The translations under genes and the position numbers were made by a program. This document shows positions 1,082 to 26,257 of a stretch of DNA of 47,188 nt, in pieces; position 1 is the stretch's first letter; the number at the start of each line of letters is the position of its first letter. Below the pieces are notes generated by a model. That model saw only the letters and a program-made list of their open reading frames with translations, made no database searches and was not told the origin of the DNA. Location of the stretch: the NCBI GenBank assembly GCA_030688685.1, contig JAUYJF010000038.1, positions 1 through 47,188 on the forward strand, read 5' to 3'. Source of the DNA: Candidatus Yanofskybacteria bacterium (GTDB lineage: Bacteria > Patescibacteriota > Minisyncoccia > Minisyncoccales > UBA10102).

Positions 1082-3265
1082 ATGGAACTGCCAAAACACT
1101 ATAATCCGGAAGAATCAGAAGAGAAATATTACAAACTCTGGGAGAAGAGCGGGTTTTTTAATCCTGACGTATGCAAGGAAAAGGGAGCTGCAGACCCCTC
1201 AAAGGAAGTTTTTTCTCTTGTGCTTCCCCCTCCCAACGTGACCGGAACCCTCCATATGGGACACGCTGCCATGCTTGCGATTGAAGACATTATCGTACGA
1301 TACGCGCGCATGCAGGGGCGGCCGACCCTTTGGATCCCGGGAACAGATCACGCGGCTATCGCCACGCAGTCAAAAGTGGAACGACAGCTCTACGAACAAG
1401 AGCAGAAAACCAGGCACGACCTCGGACGGGAAGAGTTCCTGAAACGGGTGCGAGAATTCGCCCAAGGCAGTCATGACACCATTATTCATCAGATCAAGAA
1501 AATGGGCGCATCCCTGGACTGGAGCCGCCAAGCATATACGTTAGATGAACAGCGGAGTTCCGCGACCTACGCGGCATTCAAGCGTATGTATGAACTTGGA
1601 CTTATCTACCGGGGAAACCGCATCGTGAATTGGTGTCCAAGATGTTCTTCCACGCTTGCAGATGACGAGGTGGAATACAAAGAAACGAACGCTGTTCTGT
1701 ACACATTCCGATACGCGAAAGATGTTCCCATTGCCATTTCCACAACACGGCCTGAAACAAAGTTTGGGGACACGGCTCTCGCGGTTCATCCGGAAGACAA
1801 ACGGTACCGGGAATATAGTGGGAAGGTCTATACCATAAACCTGGGAGCAGGAGACCAGGAGATCCGAGTAATCGCGGATGAATCAGTAGATTCCGAATTT
1901 GGCACGGGAGCTTTGGGAGTTACCCCGGCCCACAGCCAGATTGATGCTGAGATTGCCCAGCGCCACAATCTCCCTTCTCTCCAGGTTATTAATGAAAAGG
2001 GGGAAATGACAGAACGCACCGGCCCGTACGCGGGACTCCCCGTGAAAGAAGCGCGGAAGAGGTTTGTGGCGTGGCTGAAGGAGCAAGGGCTTCTTGAGCG
2101 CGAACAGCAGATTCCCCAGAACATCAGCGTGTGCTACCGATGCGGCACTCCCATTGAGCCCCTTCCTTCGCTTCAATGGTTTATTGCCGTAAACAAAGAA
2201 TTCGTATTGAAACATTCTCAGATTACGGGTATCGCTTCCGGTTCTCAAACAACCCTAAAGGAACTTATGAGAAAAGTGGTGGCACAGAAACAGATCACCA
2301 TTCTTCCTGAACAGTTTGAAAAGACCTACTTCCATTGGATAGATAATCTTCGCGACTGGTGCATCTCTCGCCAGATTTGGTTCGGGCATCAGATTCCCGT
2401 TTGGTATAAAAATGGGGAAATCTTTGTCGGAGAAAAAGCTCCGAGTCCAGAATGGCGGCGGGATCCGGATACCCTGGACACGTGGTTCTCTTCCGGCTTA
2501 TGGACGTTTTCCACGCTCGGCTGGCCAAAAGATACCGACGACCTCAAAACGTATCATCCCACTACCCTCCTTGAGACAGGGTATGATATTCTCTTTTTCT
2601 GGGTTGCCCGCATGATCTTACTGTCCGGATGCCTCCTGGGAGATATTCCGTTCAAAACGGTATACCTGCATGGTTTGGTGCGGGATGAGAAGGGAAAGAA
2701 GATGTCCAAATCTCTTGGAAACGTCATTGACCCTCTGGACATGATCTCAAAATACGGCGCTGACGCCACCCGCCTCTCCCTTATTGTGGGGGTGGCCCCG
2801 GGATCAGACAGCAAGCTCTCAGAAAACAAGGTGAGAGGATACAAATACTTCACCAACAAACTATGGAATATCTCCCGCTTTGTGCTTATGCAAACTGAGG
2901 ACTATGATCCCAAAGCTACCCCGCAACTTTCTCGGGAGGACGAAAAGATTCTCCAGGAGTTTCGTGCCATGGCGCAAGAAGTAACCAGACACATTGAAGG
3001 GTATCGCTTTTATCTTGCCGCTGATTCTCTGTATCAATATCTCTGGCATACCTTTGCCGACAAGGTGCTGGAGGACTCAAAGCCCCTCCTGAAGGACTCG
3101 GCCACAAGAGCCGCGCGGCAGTACGTACTTGTAAGCATTCTCGCTGATTCTGTGAAACTCCTCCACCCCTTTACTCCGTTTGTTACAGAAGCAATCTACC
3201 AAAACCTCCCCCTCGCAGAGAAGAAAGAAACCATCATGATCGAGCCCTGGCCCGTCAGCATATGA
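1082..3265 (+). CDS. valS: valine--tRNA ligase (short form, 727 aa)
   Basis: Class I aaRS motifs PPPNVTGTLHMGHA and KMSKS, plus a ValRS-like editing/CP1 region. The ORF ends soon after the anticodon-binding domain, so a long C-terminal coiled coil appears absent. Confidence 0.9.
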   Translation: MELPKHYNPEESEEKYYKLWEKSGFFNPDVCKEKGAADPSKEVFSLVLPPPNVTGTLHMGHAAMLAIEDIIVRYARMQGRPTLWIPGTDHAAIATQSKVERQLYEQEQKTRHDLGREEFLKRVREFAQGSHDTIIHQIKKMGASLDWSRQAYTLDEQRSSATYAAFKRMYELGLIYRGNRIVNWCPRCSSTLADDEVEYKETNAVLYTFRYAKDVPIAISTTRPETKFGDTALAVHPEDKRYREYSGKVYTINLGAGDQEIRVIADESVDSEFGTGALGVTPAHSQIDAEIAQRHNLPSLQVINEKGEMTERTGPYAGLPVKEARKRFVAWLKEQGLLEREQQIPQNISVCYRCGTPIEPLPSLQWFIAVNKEFVLKHSQITGIASGSQTTLKELMRKVVAQKQITILPEQFEKTYFHWIDNLRDWCISRQIWFGHQIPVWYKNGEIFVGEKAPSPEWRRDPDTLDTWFSSGLWTFSTLGWPKDTDDLKTYHPTTLLETGYDILFFWVARMILLSGCLLGDIPFKTVYLHGLVRDEKGKKMSKSLGNVIDPLDMISKYGADATRLSLIVGVAPGSDSKLSENKVRGYKYFTNKLWNISRFVLMQTEDYDPKATPQLSREDEKILQEFRAMAQEVTRHIEGYRFYLAADSLYQYLWHTFADKVLEDSKPLLKDSATRAARQYVLVSILADSVKLLHPFTPFVTEAIYQNLPLAEKKETIMIEPWPVSI

Positions 3266-6541: not shown

Positions 6542-9007
6542 TTATACACAAGCCGCGGAAATTACCTTGTCTTTTTCATCCAGGCGCATAATGCGCACCC
6601 CCTGGGTGGAACGTCCAAGTGTGGACACGGATTTGAGTTCCGTGCGAATAACCGTGCCTTTGCGGGATATCACAATCAGTTCCTCCTCTTCACCGGACAG
6701 CACCTTGCCGTACACAATATCTCCCGTCTTTGGCGTTACGTTCATTGCCTTAATGCCAGACCCCCCTCTTCCCTGCAAGCGATACTCCTTGAGTTCCGTC
6801 TTTTTCCCGTACCCGTTCTCAGTCAGCACGAGCACGAGAGGATTCTGCTCGTTTGAAGAAGAAACCACGTCAATGGAAACCACCTCGTCTCCCTTCTTGA
6901 GGCGAAGGCCGTGCACACCCGCAGCCCCTCTTCCCATGGCCCTGACTTCTGACTCCTTAAAACGTACAGACTGCCCCTTTTTCGTAAGGAGAACAACCTC
7001 ATCTTCTCCTGTTGTTTTTCGCACTCCCCTGAGTTCGTCTCCCTTTTTCAGGGTTAGAGCAATGAGCCCCGATCTCCTGACATTCTTGAACTCGTCCAGA
7101 GGAGTTTTCTTAATGATCCCATCCTTGGTCACCATAATCAGGTGTTTTACGCCAGCGTCCTCTTCCTTCTTTCCCAGAGCCATCATGGAGAGCACCTTAT
7201 CGGTGGCTGCCATTTCAAAGAAATTCAAGAGCCCGCGCCCTTTGCCCACGCGGCTTCCTTCCGGGATTTCATACATGGGAGTTCGGAATACTTTCCCAGA
7301 ATCGGTGAACATCATGAGGTAATCATGAGTTTGGCCAAACAGAAAATGCTCCACGATATCGTCTGCCGTTGTCTTCATGCCCATGAGCCCCCGTCCCCCG
7401 CGCTTCTGGAGCCGGTACATGTCGGGATTCACGCGCTTAATGTATCCTCCCTGCGTTAGCATGATCACCGTGTCTTCCTGGGGGATGAGGTCTTCTTCCG
7501 CGATTTCTCCCACCCCTTGCACTTGTACTTTGGTTTTCCGTTCGTCCCCAAACGCCTCCTTTGCGGCAAGCAGTTCTTTTTTGACAACCTCATCTATTTT
7601 CTTAGGGGAAGCTAAGATCGCGGAAAGCTCCTTGATTTTTGCCCGGATCTCTTTCAGTTCATCTTCAATCTTTGTCCGCTCCAGCTTGGAGAGCTGGGCC
7701 AGACGCATATCTAAAATGGCATTCGTTTGCATTTCCGTAAGACGGAAACGGGCCATGAGCTTTTTCTGGGCTTCTGGCCTGTCCTGTGACCCCCGGATAA
7801 TCTTAATTACCTCGTCAATATTGGTGAGACACTTCTGGAGCCCTTCCAGGATATGCTCCCGTTCCTTTGCCCGATCCAGATCATACTGCGTGCGGCGCAC
7901 AATTACAACTCTTCGGTGCGCCAAAAAATACACAAGCACTTCCGCCAACGAAAGGACACGGGGTTGAATGCCGTCCACCAGGGCAATCATGTTCAGGTGA
8001 TAGGTTTTCTGGAGATCTGAGAATTTATAGAGACGGTTCAAGATCTTCTGCGGATACGCTTCCTTGTGGAGATCAAACACGATTCGCAATCCGTCCTTAT
8101 CTGATTCGTCCCGAATGTCGCGAATGCCCTCTATTTTCTTTTCCTGCACCAGATTGGCAAACTGCTCCACCAGGGAAGATTTGTTTACCTGATAAGGAAT
8201 CTGCGTAATGATGATCTGCGTGCGCTTGGGAGTTTCTTCCACGTCTGCCTTTCCGCGCATCACAATAGGCCCTCTGCCCTGAGAGTATGCTTCAATGATT
8301 TCTCTCCTGTTGTATATGGTGCCGGCTGTAGGAAAGTCCGGCCCCTTGATGAACTGAAAGAGATCTTCTGTTGTGGTCTTCGGGTTCTCAATAAGATACG
8401 TCAAAGCGTCCACAATCTCTGAAAGATTATGGGGAGGAATATTGGTTGCCATTCCCACGGCGATCCCCAAGCTTCCGTTTAAGAGGAGCTGAGGAAGGGG
8501 GGCGGGGAGAACCGAGGGCTCCTTTCTTGTACCATCGTAGTTTTCAATAAAATCAACGGTGTTCTTCCCAATGTCGCGGAGCATTTCTTCTCCCACGCGA
8601 GAGAGGCGGGCTTCCGTGTAGCGCATAGCAGCGGCAGAGTCCCCATCTATAGAACCCATATTTCCGTGCCCTTCCACGAGCATGTACCGCATGATCCAGC
8701 TCTGGGCCATGCGAACCATAGCCTCATACACGGCGCTGTCCCCGTGCGGATGGTATCGCCCGAGCGTGGATCCAACCACGGTAGCGGATTTCCTGAACTT
8801 TGCGGCATGCGTTAAGCCGTCCTCGTACATGGCGTAGAGAATTCTCCTCTGGACCGGCTTTAATCCGTCCCGCACGTCAGGGAGCGCGCGGGCAACAATA
8901 ACAGACATGGCATAGTCCAAATAGGAGGTCCCCATTTCCTCCACAATTTCCCTGGATTCAACGGAACCCAGAGCGAACTTCTGCTGATCTGGATCTTTTT
9001 CTGCCAT
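6542..9007 (-). CDS. gyrA: DNA gyrase subunit A
   Basis: 821 aa with [12 protein letters not shown], the active-site Tyr region [11 protein letters not shown], and C-terminal beta-pinwheel repeats. Confidence 0.95.
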
Positions 9008-9011
9008 ATGT

Positions 9012-9635
9012 CTAGGAGGGCTTGAGAACGATAAGCTTCATCTCCTCTTCTCCTTCAACGTCCTTTTGTTTCAGAATAACCTTTTGCTGCGGCTCTCCTT
9101 CCTTTACTCCCATGGTTTTGAGGAATTGCTCAACCGTGCCCAGTTTTTCCTTAAGCCCTGGGATCGCGTATCGCATGGGGATCACCACGGCAGGTTCCAG
9201 CTGACTTACCATACGGGCTGCCTCCTGCGCGTCAATCGTGTCTCCCCCTCCCACGGGAATAAACAGTACGTGAACTGTTCCTATTTTCTCAATTTGCCCT
9301 GACGTAAGCTCCTGCTGTTGGATTGCCCCCAAGTGGCATACTTTCATCCCTTCAGCTTCCATCGTGTAGATGACATTTCCGTTTGTTTCCCCGATACCCT
9401 GAATAAATATGTCTTTCACCTCGTATTCGCCGGGGGTAGAAAATAGAATGGGCGTTCCTTTTACTCCTTTTGTCTCAGGTTTTCCGTGAGTAACCAAAAG
9501 AATATCCGCCTCTTGCGGCGAAAGCTTTATGCCAGTTGACTCTCCAAAGGGATCAATGAGAATTTTTACCTGCTCCTGTTTTCCCCGGGATAAGGAAAGC
9601 GAAATACATGTTTGTCCCTTCCATAGAATCTGCAT
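9012..9635 (-). CDS. MBL-fold metallo-hydrolase-like protein (degenerate metal motif)
   Basis: Beta-lactamase-fold-like pattern ([26 protein letters not shown]). I trimmed the start to the ATG at 9635 (MQILWKGQ) because the upstream extension runs into the divergent rpsA promoter. The stop lies 4 nt before the gyrA start. Confidence 0.55.
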
Positions 9636-23550: not shown

Positions 23551-24033
23551 ATGAAAAACTACATATGGGGGGTTTTGCGGTTAGCGTTGGGCTGGATCTT
23601 TCTCTGGGCATTTTTGGATAAGGTCTTCGGCTTGGGGTTCGCCACGCAAGCAGGAAAGGGTTGGATTGACGGGGGATCGCCCACCTCTGGTTTTCTCGCA
23701 TTTGGCACAAAAGGCCCTTTTGCTGAATTCTTTCAAGGACTGGCGGGGGTTCCTTTGGTAGATTGGCTCTTTATGCTCGGGCTTTTGTTCGTTGGCGCTT
23801 CCCTTCTTTTGGGCATTTTCGTGCGCCTTGCAAGCCTCACGGGCATCACTATGCTTCTCTTTATATACACCGCGAGCGCCATCCTCCCAGAGCACAATCC
23901 TTTCCTGGACGACCATATCATCTACGCCATTATCCTGGCGGGTCTCATGACAACTCCTTCCGGACGATACCTCGGCCTCGGGGGTCTGTGGGAAAAACTT
24001 CCTCTCGTCAGGAATATGCGGATTCTCCGCTAA
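23551..24033 (+). CDS. DoxX-family membrane protein
   Basis: 160 aa with 4 TM helices and the N-terminal LRLALGWIFLWAFLDK pattern. Confidence 0.7.
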   Translation: MKNYIWGVLRLALGWIFLWAFLDKVFGLGFATQAGKGWIDGGSPTSGFLAFGTKGPFAEFFQGLAGVPLVDWLFMLGLLFVGASLLLGIFVRLASLTGITMLLFIYTASAILPEHNPFLDDHIIYAIILAGLMTTPSGRYLGLGGLWEKLPLVRNMRILR

Positions 24034-24929
24034 CGGCTCTCCCGTAAGAGGTCAGAGAGCGCCTCTTTCAATTCAGGAAAAACAAAAGAATAGCCTGCCG
24101 CTTGTATCTTTTGCGAAGAGACTTTTTGGCTTGCGAGAGAAACATCCGCGAATTCCCCAAGGGCAAAGCGCATAACCCATGCGGGAATGCGCAGGAAGTG
24201 CGGGCGCCAGATCGCTCTCGCGAGAGCGGAGGAAAACTCCTTCTGGCGCACTTGGCGGGGAGCTGCGGCGTTATAAGCCCCTTTCAGAGACCTGTTTTCA
24301 AGAGCAAAGACATAGATGCCGATAATATCCTGAAGATGGATCCAAGGGAACCACTGTTTTCCGTTGCCCCAGGATCCCCCAAGCCCAAACCGGTAGAGCG
24401 AAAGAAGCTGGGCAAGCAGTCCCGCGGAAGCAAGCACAGACGCGGTTCGGACGCGCACGACCCGAATTCCTGCGCCTTGAGCGCCTTCCGCCTCCCGTTC
24501 CCACTCCACGCAAACTCCGGAAAGGAAATCAGAACCGGGAGAACTTTCCTCAAGAAGCTCCTCTTCCCCCCGATCACCATAAAAACCGACCGCGGAGGCA
24601 GAAACCAAAACCTCCGGCTTTCTGGGAAGCTTGCGCAAGGCAGCCACGAGATTGGAGGTTCCTTTGCTTCTGCTTTCCTTGATCTGCTTTTTGAGTTCAG
24701 GGTTCCATCTCCCAAATATGTTCTTTCCCGCGAGATGAACCACAGCGTCAACGCCCGCGAATACCTCCGCGGAAGGTTCTCTATCCGCAAGGTTTCCTTG
24801 GAAGAATTCTGCGTCCGCAAGAGAACTGGGGCGCATATCTAAAATGCGCACCGTATACCCCCGCCTGAGAAGCTCTTTCGTGAGGTGTGTGCCAATAAAC
24901 CCGGATCCGCCGGTAATGAGGACGCGCAT
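24030..24929 (-). CDS. NAD-dependent epimerase/dehydratase-family protein (YfcH/TIGR01777-like)
   Basis: Rossmann motif ITGGSGFIGTHL and a C-terminal DUF1731-like end. Confidence 0.75.
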   Translation of the reverse strand: MRVLITGGSGFIGTHLTKELLRRGYTVRILDMRPSSLADAEFFQGNLADREPSAEVFAGVDAVVHLAGKNIFGRWNPELKKQIKESRSKGTSNLVAALRKLPRKPEVLVSASAVGFYGDRGEEELLEESSPGSDFLSGVCVEWEREAEGAQGAGIRVVRVRTASVLASAGLLAQLLSLYRFGLGGSWGNGKQWFPWIHLQDIIGIYVFALENRSLKGAYNAAAPRQVRQKEFSSALARAIWRPHFLRIPAWVMRFALGEFADVSLASQKVSSQKIQAAGYSFVFPELKEALSDLLRESR

Positions 24930-25068: not shown

Positions 25069-25140
25069 TGCCCCCGGCAGGAATTGAACCTACATCGACT
25101 CGTTAGGAGTGAGCCGTTCTATCCGTTGAACTACGGGGGC
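25069..25140 (-). tRNA. tRNA-Arg(CCU)
   Basis: Acceptor GCCCCCG/CGGGGGC, anticodon loop CTCCTAA (A31-C39 mismatch), T-loop TTCAATT. Confidence 0.8.
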
Positions 25141-25207
25141 CGAACAGTGGTTTTTTACCATATCCTAAACCATTTCACAACAGAAAGAAGCTTGTGGGAA
25201 ATGGGGG

Positions 25208-25235
25208 TTGACAAGTGTTCCTTGCTCCATATAAT
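25208..25235 (+). promoter_or_regulatory. strong sigma70-like promoter in front of structured RNA copy 1
   Basis: TTGACA (25208-25213), 16-nt spacer, TATAAT (25230-25235). The predicted start near 25242 lies ~9 nt before the closing helix. Confidence 0.6.
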
Positions 25236-25250
25236 AGGGTCTGTATCGCA

Positions 25251-25552
25251 GCACCCGCACTTACCATATTACATCAGTTTGAGAAGCGCGCTACCGAGAC
25301 AAACGCAAGGCGCGACGACAAAACCTGTACCCATAGGTACGTTGAGGAGGAGTCTCGCTTTGCGAGATCTCGCGCAGCGAGACAACGAAGCGGTTGGCCG
25401 GTAGCATGCTTCCCCGGAGGGACGCCGCGTTTTTGGCCATCTTCTTTGTTGCTCGTCTCTCGTGTGCCGTATGGCACACTTCGCTCCTCGCGCCGCGAAT
25501 CTGTCTCAAAATATACGGCGTTCAAACGATGAAATATGGTAAGTGCGGGTGC
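25251..25552 (+). ncRNA. unclassified structured RNA element, copy 1 (~302 nt)
   Basis: No credible ORF. A 20-bp perfect closing helix (25251-25270 with 25533-25552) is extended by 25272-25282 with 25522-25531. An inner helix pairs 25283-25296 with 25399-25412. Hairpins lie at 25327-25340, 25352-25383 and 25462-25479. Ordered sequence blocks are shared with the inverted copy at 25782-26040, and the helices differ by compensatory changes. I saw no RNase P, tmRNA, SRP or 6S signatures. Confidence 0.6.
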
Positions 25553-25585
25553 CCAAAGGTCGATACAAACTATATCTTATTTATT

Positions 25586-25717
25586 ATGGTATACGAAGAA
25601 GATTTGGAAGTTTCTTTGTTTGAAAGCGACGGAGAAGACGAGCTCGGTGGGGACGACGCGGAAGAGCTCGTAGAGGAAACGGATGACGACGAGGACGAAG
25701 AGGATGAGGAGCTGTAA
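25586..25717 (+). CDS. hypothetical hyper-acidic micro-protein (43 aa)
   Basis: ATG at 25586, TAA at 25715. The product is MVYEEDLEVSLFESDGEDELGGDDAEELVEETDDDEDEEDEEL, with 25 of 43 residues D/E and no basic residue. It lies between the RNA copies and directly upstream of a strong terminator. There is no SD, as for most genes here. Coding status is unproven. Confidence 0.35.
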   Translation: MVYEEDLEVSLFESDGEDELGGDDAEELVEETDDDEDEEDEEL

Positions 25718-25739
25718 ATCTGTCTTGAAAAGATATCTA

Positions 25740-25774
25740 CCCGCAGGGGCATTCGTGCCCTTGTGGGTTTCTTT
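25740..25774 (+). terminator. rho-independent terminator with UUCG tetraloop
   Basis: A 12-bp stem cccgcaggggca/tgcccttgtggg with loop ttcg is followed by tttcttt. Two G-U wobbles on the plus-strand RNA would be C-A mismatches on the minus strand, so it is plus-strand biased. Confidence 0.7.
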
Positions 25775-25781
25775 AAGGAGC

Positions 25782-26040
25782 GGAGGATCCCGAGCAAAAT
25801 CAATTGAGCGGAGCGAATACAAGGCAGATTCAAGGAGTGAGGAGCGATGTGTGCCGTATGGCACATGAGCGACGAACAACGCGGAAGCTGTTCTGTATGC
25901 GCCCGCCCCGCGGGGAAGCTCCCAGAGTGGCTGATTTCTTCGTTACTTCTCCTCAATGTAGTATATACTACCCTTTGTCGTCGCGCCTTGAAATCATCTC
26001 ATCTGGGAGCTTCTCAATCTGATTTGTGCTCGGATCCTCC
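25782..26040 (-). ncRNA. unclassified structured RNA element, copy 2 (~259 nt, inverted paralog of copy 1)
   Basis: The closing helix pairs 26013-26040 with 25782-25808 (~26 bp with bulges). An inner 12-bp helix pairs 26002-26013 with 25915-25926. Hairpins lie at 25958-25971 and 25850-25865. The block order matches copy 1 when read on the minus strand. It begins 11 nt after the 3' end of tRNA-His, so co-transcription with the two tRNAs is plausible. Confidence 0.55.
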
Positions 26041-26051
26041 TCTCCTAGGTG

Positions 26052-26125
26052 GGTGAGCGACGGGATTCGAACCCGCGATCTTCGCTGCCACAGAGCGACG
26101 CTTTAGCCGCTAAGCTACGCCCACC
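26052..26125 (-). tRNA. tRNA-His(GUG) with encoded G-1
   Basis: G-1 plus acceptor GTGGGCG/CGCTCAC, discriminator C73, anticodon loop CTGTGGC. Confidence 0.9.
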
Positions 26126-26140
26126 ATATATACTCTCTTG

Positions 26141-26212
26141 TGCTCCCACTAGGAGTCGAACCTAGATCCCAGGCTTAGAAGGCCCGTGCTCTATCCATTG
26201 AGCTATGAGAGC
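26141..26212 (-). tRNA. tRNA-Arg(UCU)
   Basis: Acceptor GCTCTCA/TGGGAGC, anticodon loop CTTCTAA, T-loop TTCGACT. Confidence 0.85.
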
Positions 26213-26228: not shown

Positions 26229-26257
26229 ATTATATAATGAAGTCTCACTTTGGTCAA
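26229..26257 (-). promoter_or_regulatory. sigma70-like promoter for tRNA-Arg, tRNA-His and possibly RNA copy 2
   Basis: On the minus strand: TTGACC (26252-26257), 17-nt spacer, TATAAT (26229-26234). Confidence 0.5.

Follow-up and report, generated by a model that had tools for sequence, protein, structure and literature searches.

Two foldback elements in a tRNA-rich Candidatus Yanofskybacteria locus are probably insertions of a cross-phylum, MITE-like family

REPINs consist of two inverted short hairpin modules (REP doublets) that form a larger hairpin unit; they are non-coding, intergenic, and multi-copy, and are mobilised by RAYT. Transcripts of hairpin-type MITEs (miniature transposable elements with inverted repeats) form stable stem-loops, and RNase III cuts the Correia-containing ones at the paired inverted repeats (PMC10969869). 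Target duplications of 3 bp with the pattern TWA, TNA, or ANT are characteristic of the PIF/Harbinger-IS5 (PHIS) superfamily of DDE transposases (PMC4482050). Intervening sequences of 23S rRNA are extended stem-loops at helix tips (e.g., helix 25), which are considered selfish and horizontally spread (PMC11270868, PMC4990558). Here, we analyze a stretch of 47,188 nt from a Candidatus Yanofskybacteria bacterium (GCA_030688685.1, contig JAUYJF010000038.1), referred to below as the window, which contains two non-coding elements of ~270-300 nt in opposite orientation, W1 (25251-25552, + strand) and W2 (25777-26045, - strand). With a probability of roughly 0.75, sequence comparison suggests that W1 and W2 are independent passenger insertions of a small non-autonomous foldback, or MITE-like, mobile element. 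The family to which they belong is large, crosses phyla, and is not represented in Rfam.

The mobile-element reading of W1 and W2 follows from empty orthologous sites, the unrelated sites occupied by relatives, TNA duplications around relatives, and insertions in rRNA genes. Proteins flanking the elements have no close relatives (identity of at most 57% for the epimerase and 59% for IF-2), and exact look-ups of the flanking window proteins returned no match; the best named IF-2 matches are found in Patescibacteria such as Wildermuthbacteria and Paceibacterota. Two contigs reached via IF-2 homologs, L140 (Ca. Wildermuthbacteria, GCA_016186115.1) and L145, keep the gene order of the window. The common order starts with type IV pilus genes (pilMNO), two small open reading frames (ORFs), tRNA-Arg(TCT), tRNA-His, and a hairpin terminator, after which come a small, oppositely oriented acidic ORF, tRNA-Arg(CCT), tRNA-Ala(GGC), tRNA-Ser(CGA), DUF4446, and IF-2. 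In a scan of L140-L145, nhmmer reported no match to the element in L140 and L145 at E-values up to 1. Once 25251-25552 is removed, the window is colinear with L140 through GGGGTTGACAA...TATAATAGGG..GTAT..GCA/AAGGTCGA, and once W2 is removed, the - strand is colinear with L140 through tRNA-Arg, tRNA-His, and the terminator. At the level of aligned sequence, the elements are thereby shown to be insertions relative to orthologous loci.

The same comparison settles to which gene the promoter upstream of W1 belongs. Both promoters reported in the initial annotation are present, with 12/12 consensus matches at 25208-25235 (+) and 11/12 at 26257-26229 (-). The former had been described as copy 1's own. 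In L140, however, the acidic ORF has no element and is preceded by the same GGGGTTGACAA...TATAATAGGG, its own TTGACA-16-TATAAT promoter. Since the promoter is kept before the orthologous ORF in an element-free relative, the 12/12 promoter belongs to the acidic ORF, and W1 lies in its 5' untranslated region (UTR). The two copies had also been taken for diverged local paralogs. According to the family alignment, W1 and W2 share 63% identity within the outer helix, while the nearest copies to W1 are of the rRNA type (L118, 69%) and those to W2 are L076 and L134 (70-71%). Thus, each copy is as close or closer to foreign copies than to its neighbor, both are missing from the locus in L140 and L145, and two independent insertions fit better than a local duplication.

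Relatives were collected from metagenomes with a pattern on the 3' block (GTTGNTCGTCNCTC, 12-30 nt, TCGCTCCTC), which matches at least 120 loci, compared with about 10 expected by chance according to our own estimate. Because these loci were chosen by an exact pattern, conservation within it is circular, and only positions outside it count. The host GC content of the metagenome loci ranges from 35 to 73%, with full-length copies of the window type in contigs of 35-52% GC. Using a profile of the two window copies, nhmmer reports full-length relatives in L132, L134, L118, L076, L063, L036, L099, L022, L087, L080, L029, and L125, and many further loci that match only the 3' half. A search of viral contigs and of one genome per GTDB species with a pattern for the 5' block, GGCGCGACGAC(AAA)...TTGAGGAG, yielded nothing beyond chance matches; other copies read GACGACGAAG at the position where the window reads GACGACAAA. 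The 3' core has a single occurrence in viral contigs.

The genomic surroundings of family members are mixed. The nearest long ORFs beside the loci represent 118 different Pfam families, none of them matched by more than two proteins, and the orientation of adjacent genes is random (26+/23- on the left, 19+/18- on the right). Neither a tRNA gene nor a sense promoter was found beside any other full-length copy. Adjacency to tRNA genes, which the initial annotation considered meaningful, is therefore rejected as a family trait and is incidental, given that the 47-kb window holds 19 tRNA genes in several small clusters.

As for target sites, sequence comparison shows that relatives make 3-bp TNA duplications and land in unrelated intergenic sites and rRNA helices. 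One short subfamily, subfamily 1, is present as near-identical copies at ~17 sites, in contigs from one sample set. Its left three bases are identical to the right three in 8 of 9 complete copies and are always TNA (TAA, TTA, or TGA); as these flanks are direct and not inverted repeats, they represent target-site duplications. Subfamily 2 is flanked by TA or by transition variants of TA. A distant relative of ~270 bp lies unannotated between PTS glucitol IIB/IIC genes of a Terrarubrum flagellatum plasmid (NZ_CP091854.1, positions 2945-3222, here L146). It has 17-bp inverted ends GAGCCTGTTTGGGAATT with TTA on both sides, and its 5' module is like that of the soil long forms (E = 4e-8), while the 3' module differs. 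Identical flanks are thus seen in relatives (subfamily 1 and L146), and the window copies have imperfect ones only, W2 being flanked by CTA (26048-26046) and TTA (25776-25774).

Several individual loci show further arrangements. At L075 (24-283), two short-form copies abut head to tail with one TAA in common. At L046, a mini-insert of ~30 bp, TAAGCGTCC...GACGCTAA, is located directly after the 3' box of the core and resembles the bare ends of the other subfamily. The suhB/mmgR small RNA of Rfam, at 1492-1564 of L060 and 356-428 of L119, lies ~20 nt upstream of a core in these contigs, which are near-identical at this locus; its proximity is likely coincidental.

Homologs were also found in rRNA genes. 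Within 23S, they lie between E. coli positions 262-406 (L132), 540-616 (L080, the helix-25 region), and 839-975 (L022). Within 16S, the homolog of L099 is found at the helix 17 tip, between positions 432 and 505, and in L118 one is situated 30 nt upstream of the 16S gene and downstream of an 11/12 promoter. The rRNA genes of L022 (154-4428, -), L080 (1-2486, -), L132, and L099 bear several inserts; the 23S of L022 is ~1,350 nt longer than the model and also contains a group I intron (749-924). Multiple inserts are typical of rRNA genes in the Candidate Phyla Radiation (CPR), to which the contigs in question belong only putatively. A survey of CPR rRNA reported numerous short inserts, neither introns nor carriers of ORFs, which were left uncharacterised, and helix 25 of 23S is known to harbor intervening sequences that RNase III cuts (PMC11270868). 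For some unexplained short inserts of this kind, the family provides a concrete searchable sequence model.

To describe the anatomy of the long form, 12 full-length copies were aligned (W1, W2, and 10 metagenomic ones). RNAalifold combined with a pair count supports six helices comprising 72 pairs, which are paired in 90.7% of cases versus 69.1% in shuffles, and in 30-44% in a control with the 3' partners displaced by 1-3 columns. Both sides change at 57 of the 72 pairs, including 26 of the 30 in the outer helix; neither the pairing nor the two-sided change is reached in any of 500 shuffles. The earlier statement that the helices are kept by different sequences through compensatory changes therefore holds for the family as well. 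Its extension to selection on RNA structure in one strand is not supported. Changes in the helices are almost all from one Watson-Crick pair to another (183 two-sided cells versus few one-sided), and the long-form helices, with their 72 pairs, show G·U and A·C equally often (28 and 25, respectively), while in the short forms A·C (183) exceeds G·U (112). Taken together, the near-equal G·U and A·C counts and the Watson-Crick-to-Watson-Crick changes mean that one-strand selection on RNA structure is not shown. This pattern fits complementarity required on both strands, or homogenised arms, rather than an RNA of one strand.

The 5' half is ordered as arms, box CAAGGCGCGACGACGAAG, hairpin, and box GAGGAGGAGCAAC, and the 3' half as arms, box GUUGCUCGUCGCUC, hairpin, and box UCGCUCCUCGCGCC. 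Against the reverse-complemented 3' half, the 5' half reaches local alignment scores of 26-75 in 11 of the 12 copies and 20 in L125, compared with a shuffle baseline having a mean of ~15 and a maximum of 28. The two halves are thus diverged inverted copies of one ~100-nt module, which makes the long form an inverted dimer that presents one purine-rich module on each strand. The short forms (~155-165 bp) contain a single module within the outer repeat. Element sizes range from 155 to 302 bp, with an outer helix of 20-30 bp in every copy. Outside the search pattern the box sequence is near-invariant in the 12 copies while the stems change with compensation; the same near-invariance is seen there for CGCC-T-N-G, which follows CTCCTC, and for a C located four bases upstream of the first box.

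The boxes of a module pair in register across its hairpin. Box position 5 covaries with the first base after CUCCUC, this pair being C-G in 89, T-A in 11, and G-C in 1 among 106 distinct cores, and the 3' module of W2 has the covarying T...A pair, as in 11 other copies. For the 5' module, RNAalifold recovers the G-C rungs 71-146, 72-115, 75-112, and 78-109, and L125 shows compensatory changes at two rungs. As far as aligned sequences go, the pairing register is proven by covariation. In this register, three tandem G·A/A·G pairs stand between the G-C rungs of the purine-rich strand, and folded as RNA this strand has a mean energy of -14.2 kcal/mol versus -8.3 for its complement, being more stable in 93 of 97 cores. 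The GAGGAG and CUCCUC blocks had been proposed to form a long-range pairing. Their complementarity is indeed present in all 12 full-length copies, but without covariation beyond shuffles; complementarity between the two modules amounts to 86.5%, is not above shuffles either, and follows from the inverted duplication. What is unusual about the family is a core deeply conserved across hosts, a purine-rich G·A-paired hairpin on both strands, and copies in putative Patescibacteria rRNA genes. In L063, L076, L125, and L036, which are Patescibacteria-type copies, the 3' arm of the outer helix resembles a tRNA T-arm (CTGGTTCGAATCC; compare 25777-25800 in the window), a likeness that may be due to chance, a target relic, or mimicry.

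Some further likenesses of the boxes were considered and set aside. The boxes are not regarded as the start codon and Shine-Dalgarno sequence of a lost transposase gene, an idea raised by the frequent ATG, GTG, or TTG at the beginning of NTGAGCGACGAGCAAC, since CTG and triplets that are no start codon are also seen at this place and the length of the hairpin is not divisible by 3. Resemblances to kink-turn, hammerhead, attC, and the Rep-binding site of adeno-associated virus misfit in polarity or consensus.

Sequence check and full-length alignment both confirm that the window holds the same element twice, in opposite orientation and with common ordered blocks. W1 and W2 can be aligned over their whole length, and the columns of this pairwise alignment are 75% identical on average. 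The 16-nt block AAGGCGCGACGACAAA occurs exactly twice in the 47-kb window, at 25307-25322 (+) and 25974-25989 (-), and the 27-nt block TGTGCCNTANGGCACACNTCGCTCCTC, of the form TGTGCC-N4-GGCACAC-N-TCGCTCCTC, also has two occurrences there and 0 matches in 100 shuffles. The predicted folds of W1 (-152.3 kcal/mol, z = -9.7) and W2 (-113.8 kcal/mol, z = -7.0) are equaled by no dinucleotide shuffle. In W1, 25251-25270 and 25533-25552 are perfectly complementary over 20 bp, and the outer helix is prolonged by catc/gatg (25272-25275 with 25528-25531) plus gtttga/tcaaac (25277-25282 with 25522-25527). Of the pairs in the second helix of W1 (25283-25296 with 25399-25412), 12 are Watson-Crick, one is G·U, and one is C·A; the second helix of W2 has 12 perfect pairs of unlike sequence. 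The helices described previously are therefore present, apart from the two imperfect pairs in the second helix of W1 and the extent of W2, which is longer by 5 nt at either end.

None of the reading frames stays open across the homologs, so coding potential is rejected for the element, in agreement with the initial annotation, which saw no convincing long ORF. It had likewise found no signature of RNase P, tmRNA, SRP, 6S, the cobalamin riboswitch, or group I/II introns, and Rfam covariance models, which cover these families as well as riboswitches, GOLLD, ROOL, and HEARO, gave no family match at the elements, even at permissive thresholds. The scan of the whole window at the gathering score gave no match at the elements, the scan of 25140-26060 at E-values up to 10 gave only a chance microRNA match, and no matches were obtained at the elements in 44 homologous loci or to the short forms at E-values up to 1. 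The likeness to GOLLD and ROOL suggested in the initial annotation was not borne out by Rfam. The only Rfam near-match of the palindrome private to W1 is the chance microRNA (E = 1.3). A literature search for the literal box sequences returned no match. Coordinates of the elements, their parts, and the adjacent features are listed in Table 1.

Table 1. Features of W1, W2, and their surroundings in the window
Feature	Position	Strand	Remarks
W1 (copy 1 of the initial annotation)	25251-25552	+	Complete long-form element; aligned to W2 plus 10 metagenomic copies
W1 outer helix, 5' arm	25251-25282	+	Equivalent to terminal inverted repeat; pairs with 25522-25552
W1 outer helix, 3' arm	25522-25552	+	From sequence, fold, and pair counts
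W1 5' module	25283-25412	+	Purine-rich; arms 25283-25296 with 25399-25412, hairpin 25327-25340
W1 5' module boxes	25306-25322; 25342-25352	+	CAAGGCGCGACGACAAA; UUGAGGAGGAG
W1 palindrome, 32 nt, near-perfect	25352-25383	+	GTCTCGCTTTGCGAGATCTCGCGCAGCGAGAC; private to W1, missing from 11 other full-length copies
W1 3' module	25423-25520	+	Pyrimidine-rich on +; arms 25423-25444 with 25497-25520, hairpin 25462-25479
W1 3' module boxes	25448-25461; 25481-25497	+	GUUGCUCGUCUCUC; UCGCUCCUCGCGCCGCG; the two boxes pair in register
Possible 3-bp target duplication of W1	25248-25250; 25553-25555	+	GCA on the left, CCA on the right, one mismatch; empty L140 site has single GCA
W2 (copy 2 of the initial annotation)	25777-26045	-	Complete long-form element; 5 nt added on each side
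W2 5' module	25915-26013	-	Arms 26013-26002 with 25926-25915, box AAGGCGCGACGACAAA (25989-25974), hairpin 25971-25958
W2 5' module, second box	25957-25950	-	UUGAGGAG
W2 3' module	25809-25905	-	Box GUUGUUCGUCGCUC (25880-25867), hairpin 25866-25848, box UCGCUCCUCACUCCUUG (25847-25831)
Sigma-70-type promoter TTGACA-16-TATAAT	25208-25235	+	12/12 matches; context, not part of the element
Acidic ORF, 43 aa	25586-25717	+	Host gene whose 5' UTR holds W1; context
G+C-rich hairpin terminator	25739-25768	both	13 pairs, then TTTCTTT on +
tRNA-His	26051-26124	-	
tRNA-Arg(TCT)	26140-26212	-	
Promoter of the tRNA-Arg(TCT)-tRNA-His operon	26229-26257	-	11/12 matches; context

The segment between W1 and W2 comprises 224 bp and holds the acidic ORF and the terminator. 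The latter ends the + transcript of the ORF and is located directly downstream of W2 on the - strand, and is bidirectional; W2 begins ~5 nt after tRNA-His and lies between that gene and the terminator. Orthologs of the acidic ORF have the same position and orientation in L140 (8879-9049, -, 56 aa) and L145 (about 8985-9140, -), so that a very acidic ORF of 43-56 aa sits between tRNA-His and tRNA-Arg(CCT) in three distant Patescibacteria contigs. It is followed by a hairpin terminator in all three and has its own consensus promoter in the window and L140; the equivalent terminator after tRNA-His is at 8832-8870 in L140 and is present in L145 as well. No Pfam family matches the ORF; it is probably a real small protein gene. 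Genes for a DoxX-like protein and a TIGR01777 epimerase occupy 23551-24929, between tRNA-Ala(GGC) and tRNA-Ser(CGA). As these two tRNA genes are only 10-47 nt apart in L140 and L145, the DoxX-like/epimerase stretch represents a second indel in this tRNA-rich locus.

Under the mobile-element reading, movement would be carried out by a DDE transposase supplied in trans, for which the 3-bp TNA duplications suggest an IS5/PIF-Harbinger-like enzyme, and the conserved core in its hairpin form would be needed either for mobilisation or for being tolerated. Judging from the promoters and terminator, both window copies are very probably transcribed. W1 would be transcribed passively in the 5' UTR of the acidic ORF, from the ORF promoter, and W2 as a 3' trailer of the tRNA-Arg/tRNA-His operon from the promoter at 26257-26229; the long perfect outer helix in both transcripts could then serve as a natural RNase III substrate. 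By its insertion, W1 extends the 5' UTR of the acidic ORF, otherwise estimated at 70 nt, to ~345 nt with a very stable structure, and expression of the ORF may be affected. In addition, we tentatively propose that the core hairpin is a functional single-stranded module rather than a relic, read as single-stranded DNA or RNA by some mobilisation or host factor, and that it defines an undescribed cross-phylum foldback superfamily. The inverted-dimer form of the elements presents the module on both strands, and the family would explain a share of the 'uncharacterised' inserts known from 16S and 23S rRNA genes of Patescibacteria.

In line with MITEs, family members are small, have no coding capacity, bear terminal inverted repeats, and occupy many unrelated sites with presence/absence polymorphism. 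Several results, however, weigh against a mobile element. A parent insertion sequence with the same ends and a transposase was found neither in the retrieved loci nor in plasmids. Genes flanking family members include no transposase with matching ends, the retrieved metagenome loci contain no unpaired element ends, and BLAST of the elements and their ends against plasmids revealed one distant relative and no parent element. Clustering of the ORFs near 120 cores yielded nothing but spurious ORFs that overlap the element, and Pfam annotation of 132 neighbors showed no enriched family and no transposase among the top 25 of the 118 families. The outer termini differ widely from one subfamily to another, in contrast to the nearly invariant internal boxes, which is the reverse of the usual inverted repeats bound by a transposase. 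Strong covariation of the internal helices needs either selection on a single-stranded fold or a mechanism that homogenises arms. The repeats flanking the window copies are imperfect (GCA/CCA and CTA/TTA), and each has a chance probability of ~0.16. The five copies associated with rRNA all lie in the same orientation relative to it, and rRNA-borne copies have no flanking target duplications. Finally, given their probable transcription, the window copies may have a secondary role at the RNA level.

One rival reading is that W1 and W2 are two paralogous genes of a new class of trans-acting structured non-coding RNA, with the conserved unpaired boxes as active or binding sites. It would account for near-invariant boxes outside the search pattern alongside compensated stems, for the strong folds of both copies, for their position downstream of strong promoters and upstream of a terminator, and for the regular helix rich in G·A pairs that the purine-rich core forms. 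The covariation is indeed what a conserved secondary structure of an RNA family would yield, whereas a strand-specific G·U signature, an own promoter and terminator, or a conserved genomic context were not found in the family. The promoter before W1 belongs to another gene and other homologs have none of their own; synteny is absent and orientation random; homologs lie inside rRNA genes, target-site duplications flank relatives, orthologous loci exist without the elements, and G·U is not in excess over A·C. We therefore regard a new RNA class as unlikely, although it is the strongest competitor of the mobile-element reading. A still less probable role is that of host-serving processing modules akin to intervening sequences, whose helices direct RNase III cleavage of tRNA and rRNA precursors. 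Homologs at 16S and 23S helix tips and in a 16S leader downstream of an 11/12 promoter speak for it, as do the start of W2 ~5 nt after tRNA-His, the status of helix 25 as a known RNase III-cut site, and the abundance of uncharacterised short inserts in CPR rRNA (PMC11270868). Most members, however, occur in ordinary intergenic DNA beside protein-coding genes, the same tRNA operon has no element in relatives, and W1 is located in an mRNA leader on the strand opposite to the tRNAs.

That W1 regulates the acidic ORF in cis, as a riboswitch-like leader or a translational operator, with W2 as its decayed duplicate, seems very improbable. W1 does fill the 5' UTR between promoter and ORF, but the orthologous ORFs of L140 and L145 have short leaders without the element, no acidic ORF lies downstream of the other full-length copies, and the genes flanking family members are unrelated. 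The least credible proposal is that W1 and W2 are the terminal inverted repeats of one larger composite element carrying the acidic ORF, as the inverted copies flanking a 224-bp segment with ORF and terminator might suggest: ORF, promoter, and terminator are native to the locus in element-free relatives, the outer ends of W1 and W2 are unrelated, each copy is self-contained with its own outer helix, and the two belong to different sublineages. The initial annotation had stated that its RNA interpretation would fall if the pair were merely the terminal inverted repeat of a multi-copy mobile element. The family did turn out to be mobile and multi-copy, but with W1 and W2 as complete elements rather than repeats of a single one.

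Overall, the original sighting is real, yet it probably concerns a selfish repeat and not a new class of functional RNA. For annotation, this calls for caution, since conserved loops with compensatory stems can arise from a palindromic mobile element; a G·U/A·C symmetry test together with an empty-site comparison separates the RNA-gene from the mobile-element reading. MITE-like elements are little described in Patescibacteria. An internal core better conserved than the ends, across hosts of 35-73% GC, points to recognition of a folded hairpin and not of duplex ends.

In comparison with known systems, the elements are similar to large ornate RNAs (GOLLD, ROOL, raiA, and HEARO) in size range, rich secondary structure, and occasional tRNA proximity, but differ from them in having no Rfam match, no conserved gene context, and the behavior of mobile elements. 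As for intervening sequences, L080, L022, L132, and L099 carry the element at sites of this type, whereas the window copies are not in rRNA, and we know of no sequence shared between known 23S intervening sequences and the present core. The TAA, TTA, and TGA duplications of subfamily 1 resemble those of Tourist-type MITEs and the PHIS superfamily; unlike in these, no transposase was found here, the window copies are flanked by GCA/CCA and CTA/TTA, and subfamily 2 by TA. With the hairpin MITEs (Correia/NEMIS of Neisseria, ERIC, and RUP), which make short target duplications that decay with age, the family shares small size, absence of coding sequence, terminal inverted repeats, intergenic location, and multiple copies; clean target duplications are seen here around relatives of the window copies. 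Unlike these MITEs, the present family has an inverted-dimer form, copies within rRNA genes, and no known parent insertion sequence; Correia/NEMIS, ERIC, and RUP are confined to a genus or family and have conserved ends, while the ends here are variable and an internal core of ~45 nt is conserved across hosts of 35-73% GC. The long form is closest in layout to REPINs, being likewise an inverted doublet of a hairpin module. To our knowledge, REPINs make no target duplication and have species-specific sequences and a single RAYT gene, whereas the present family has TNA duplications and a core conserved across phyla.

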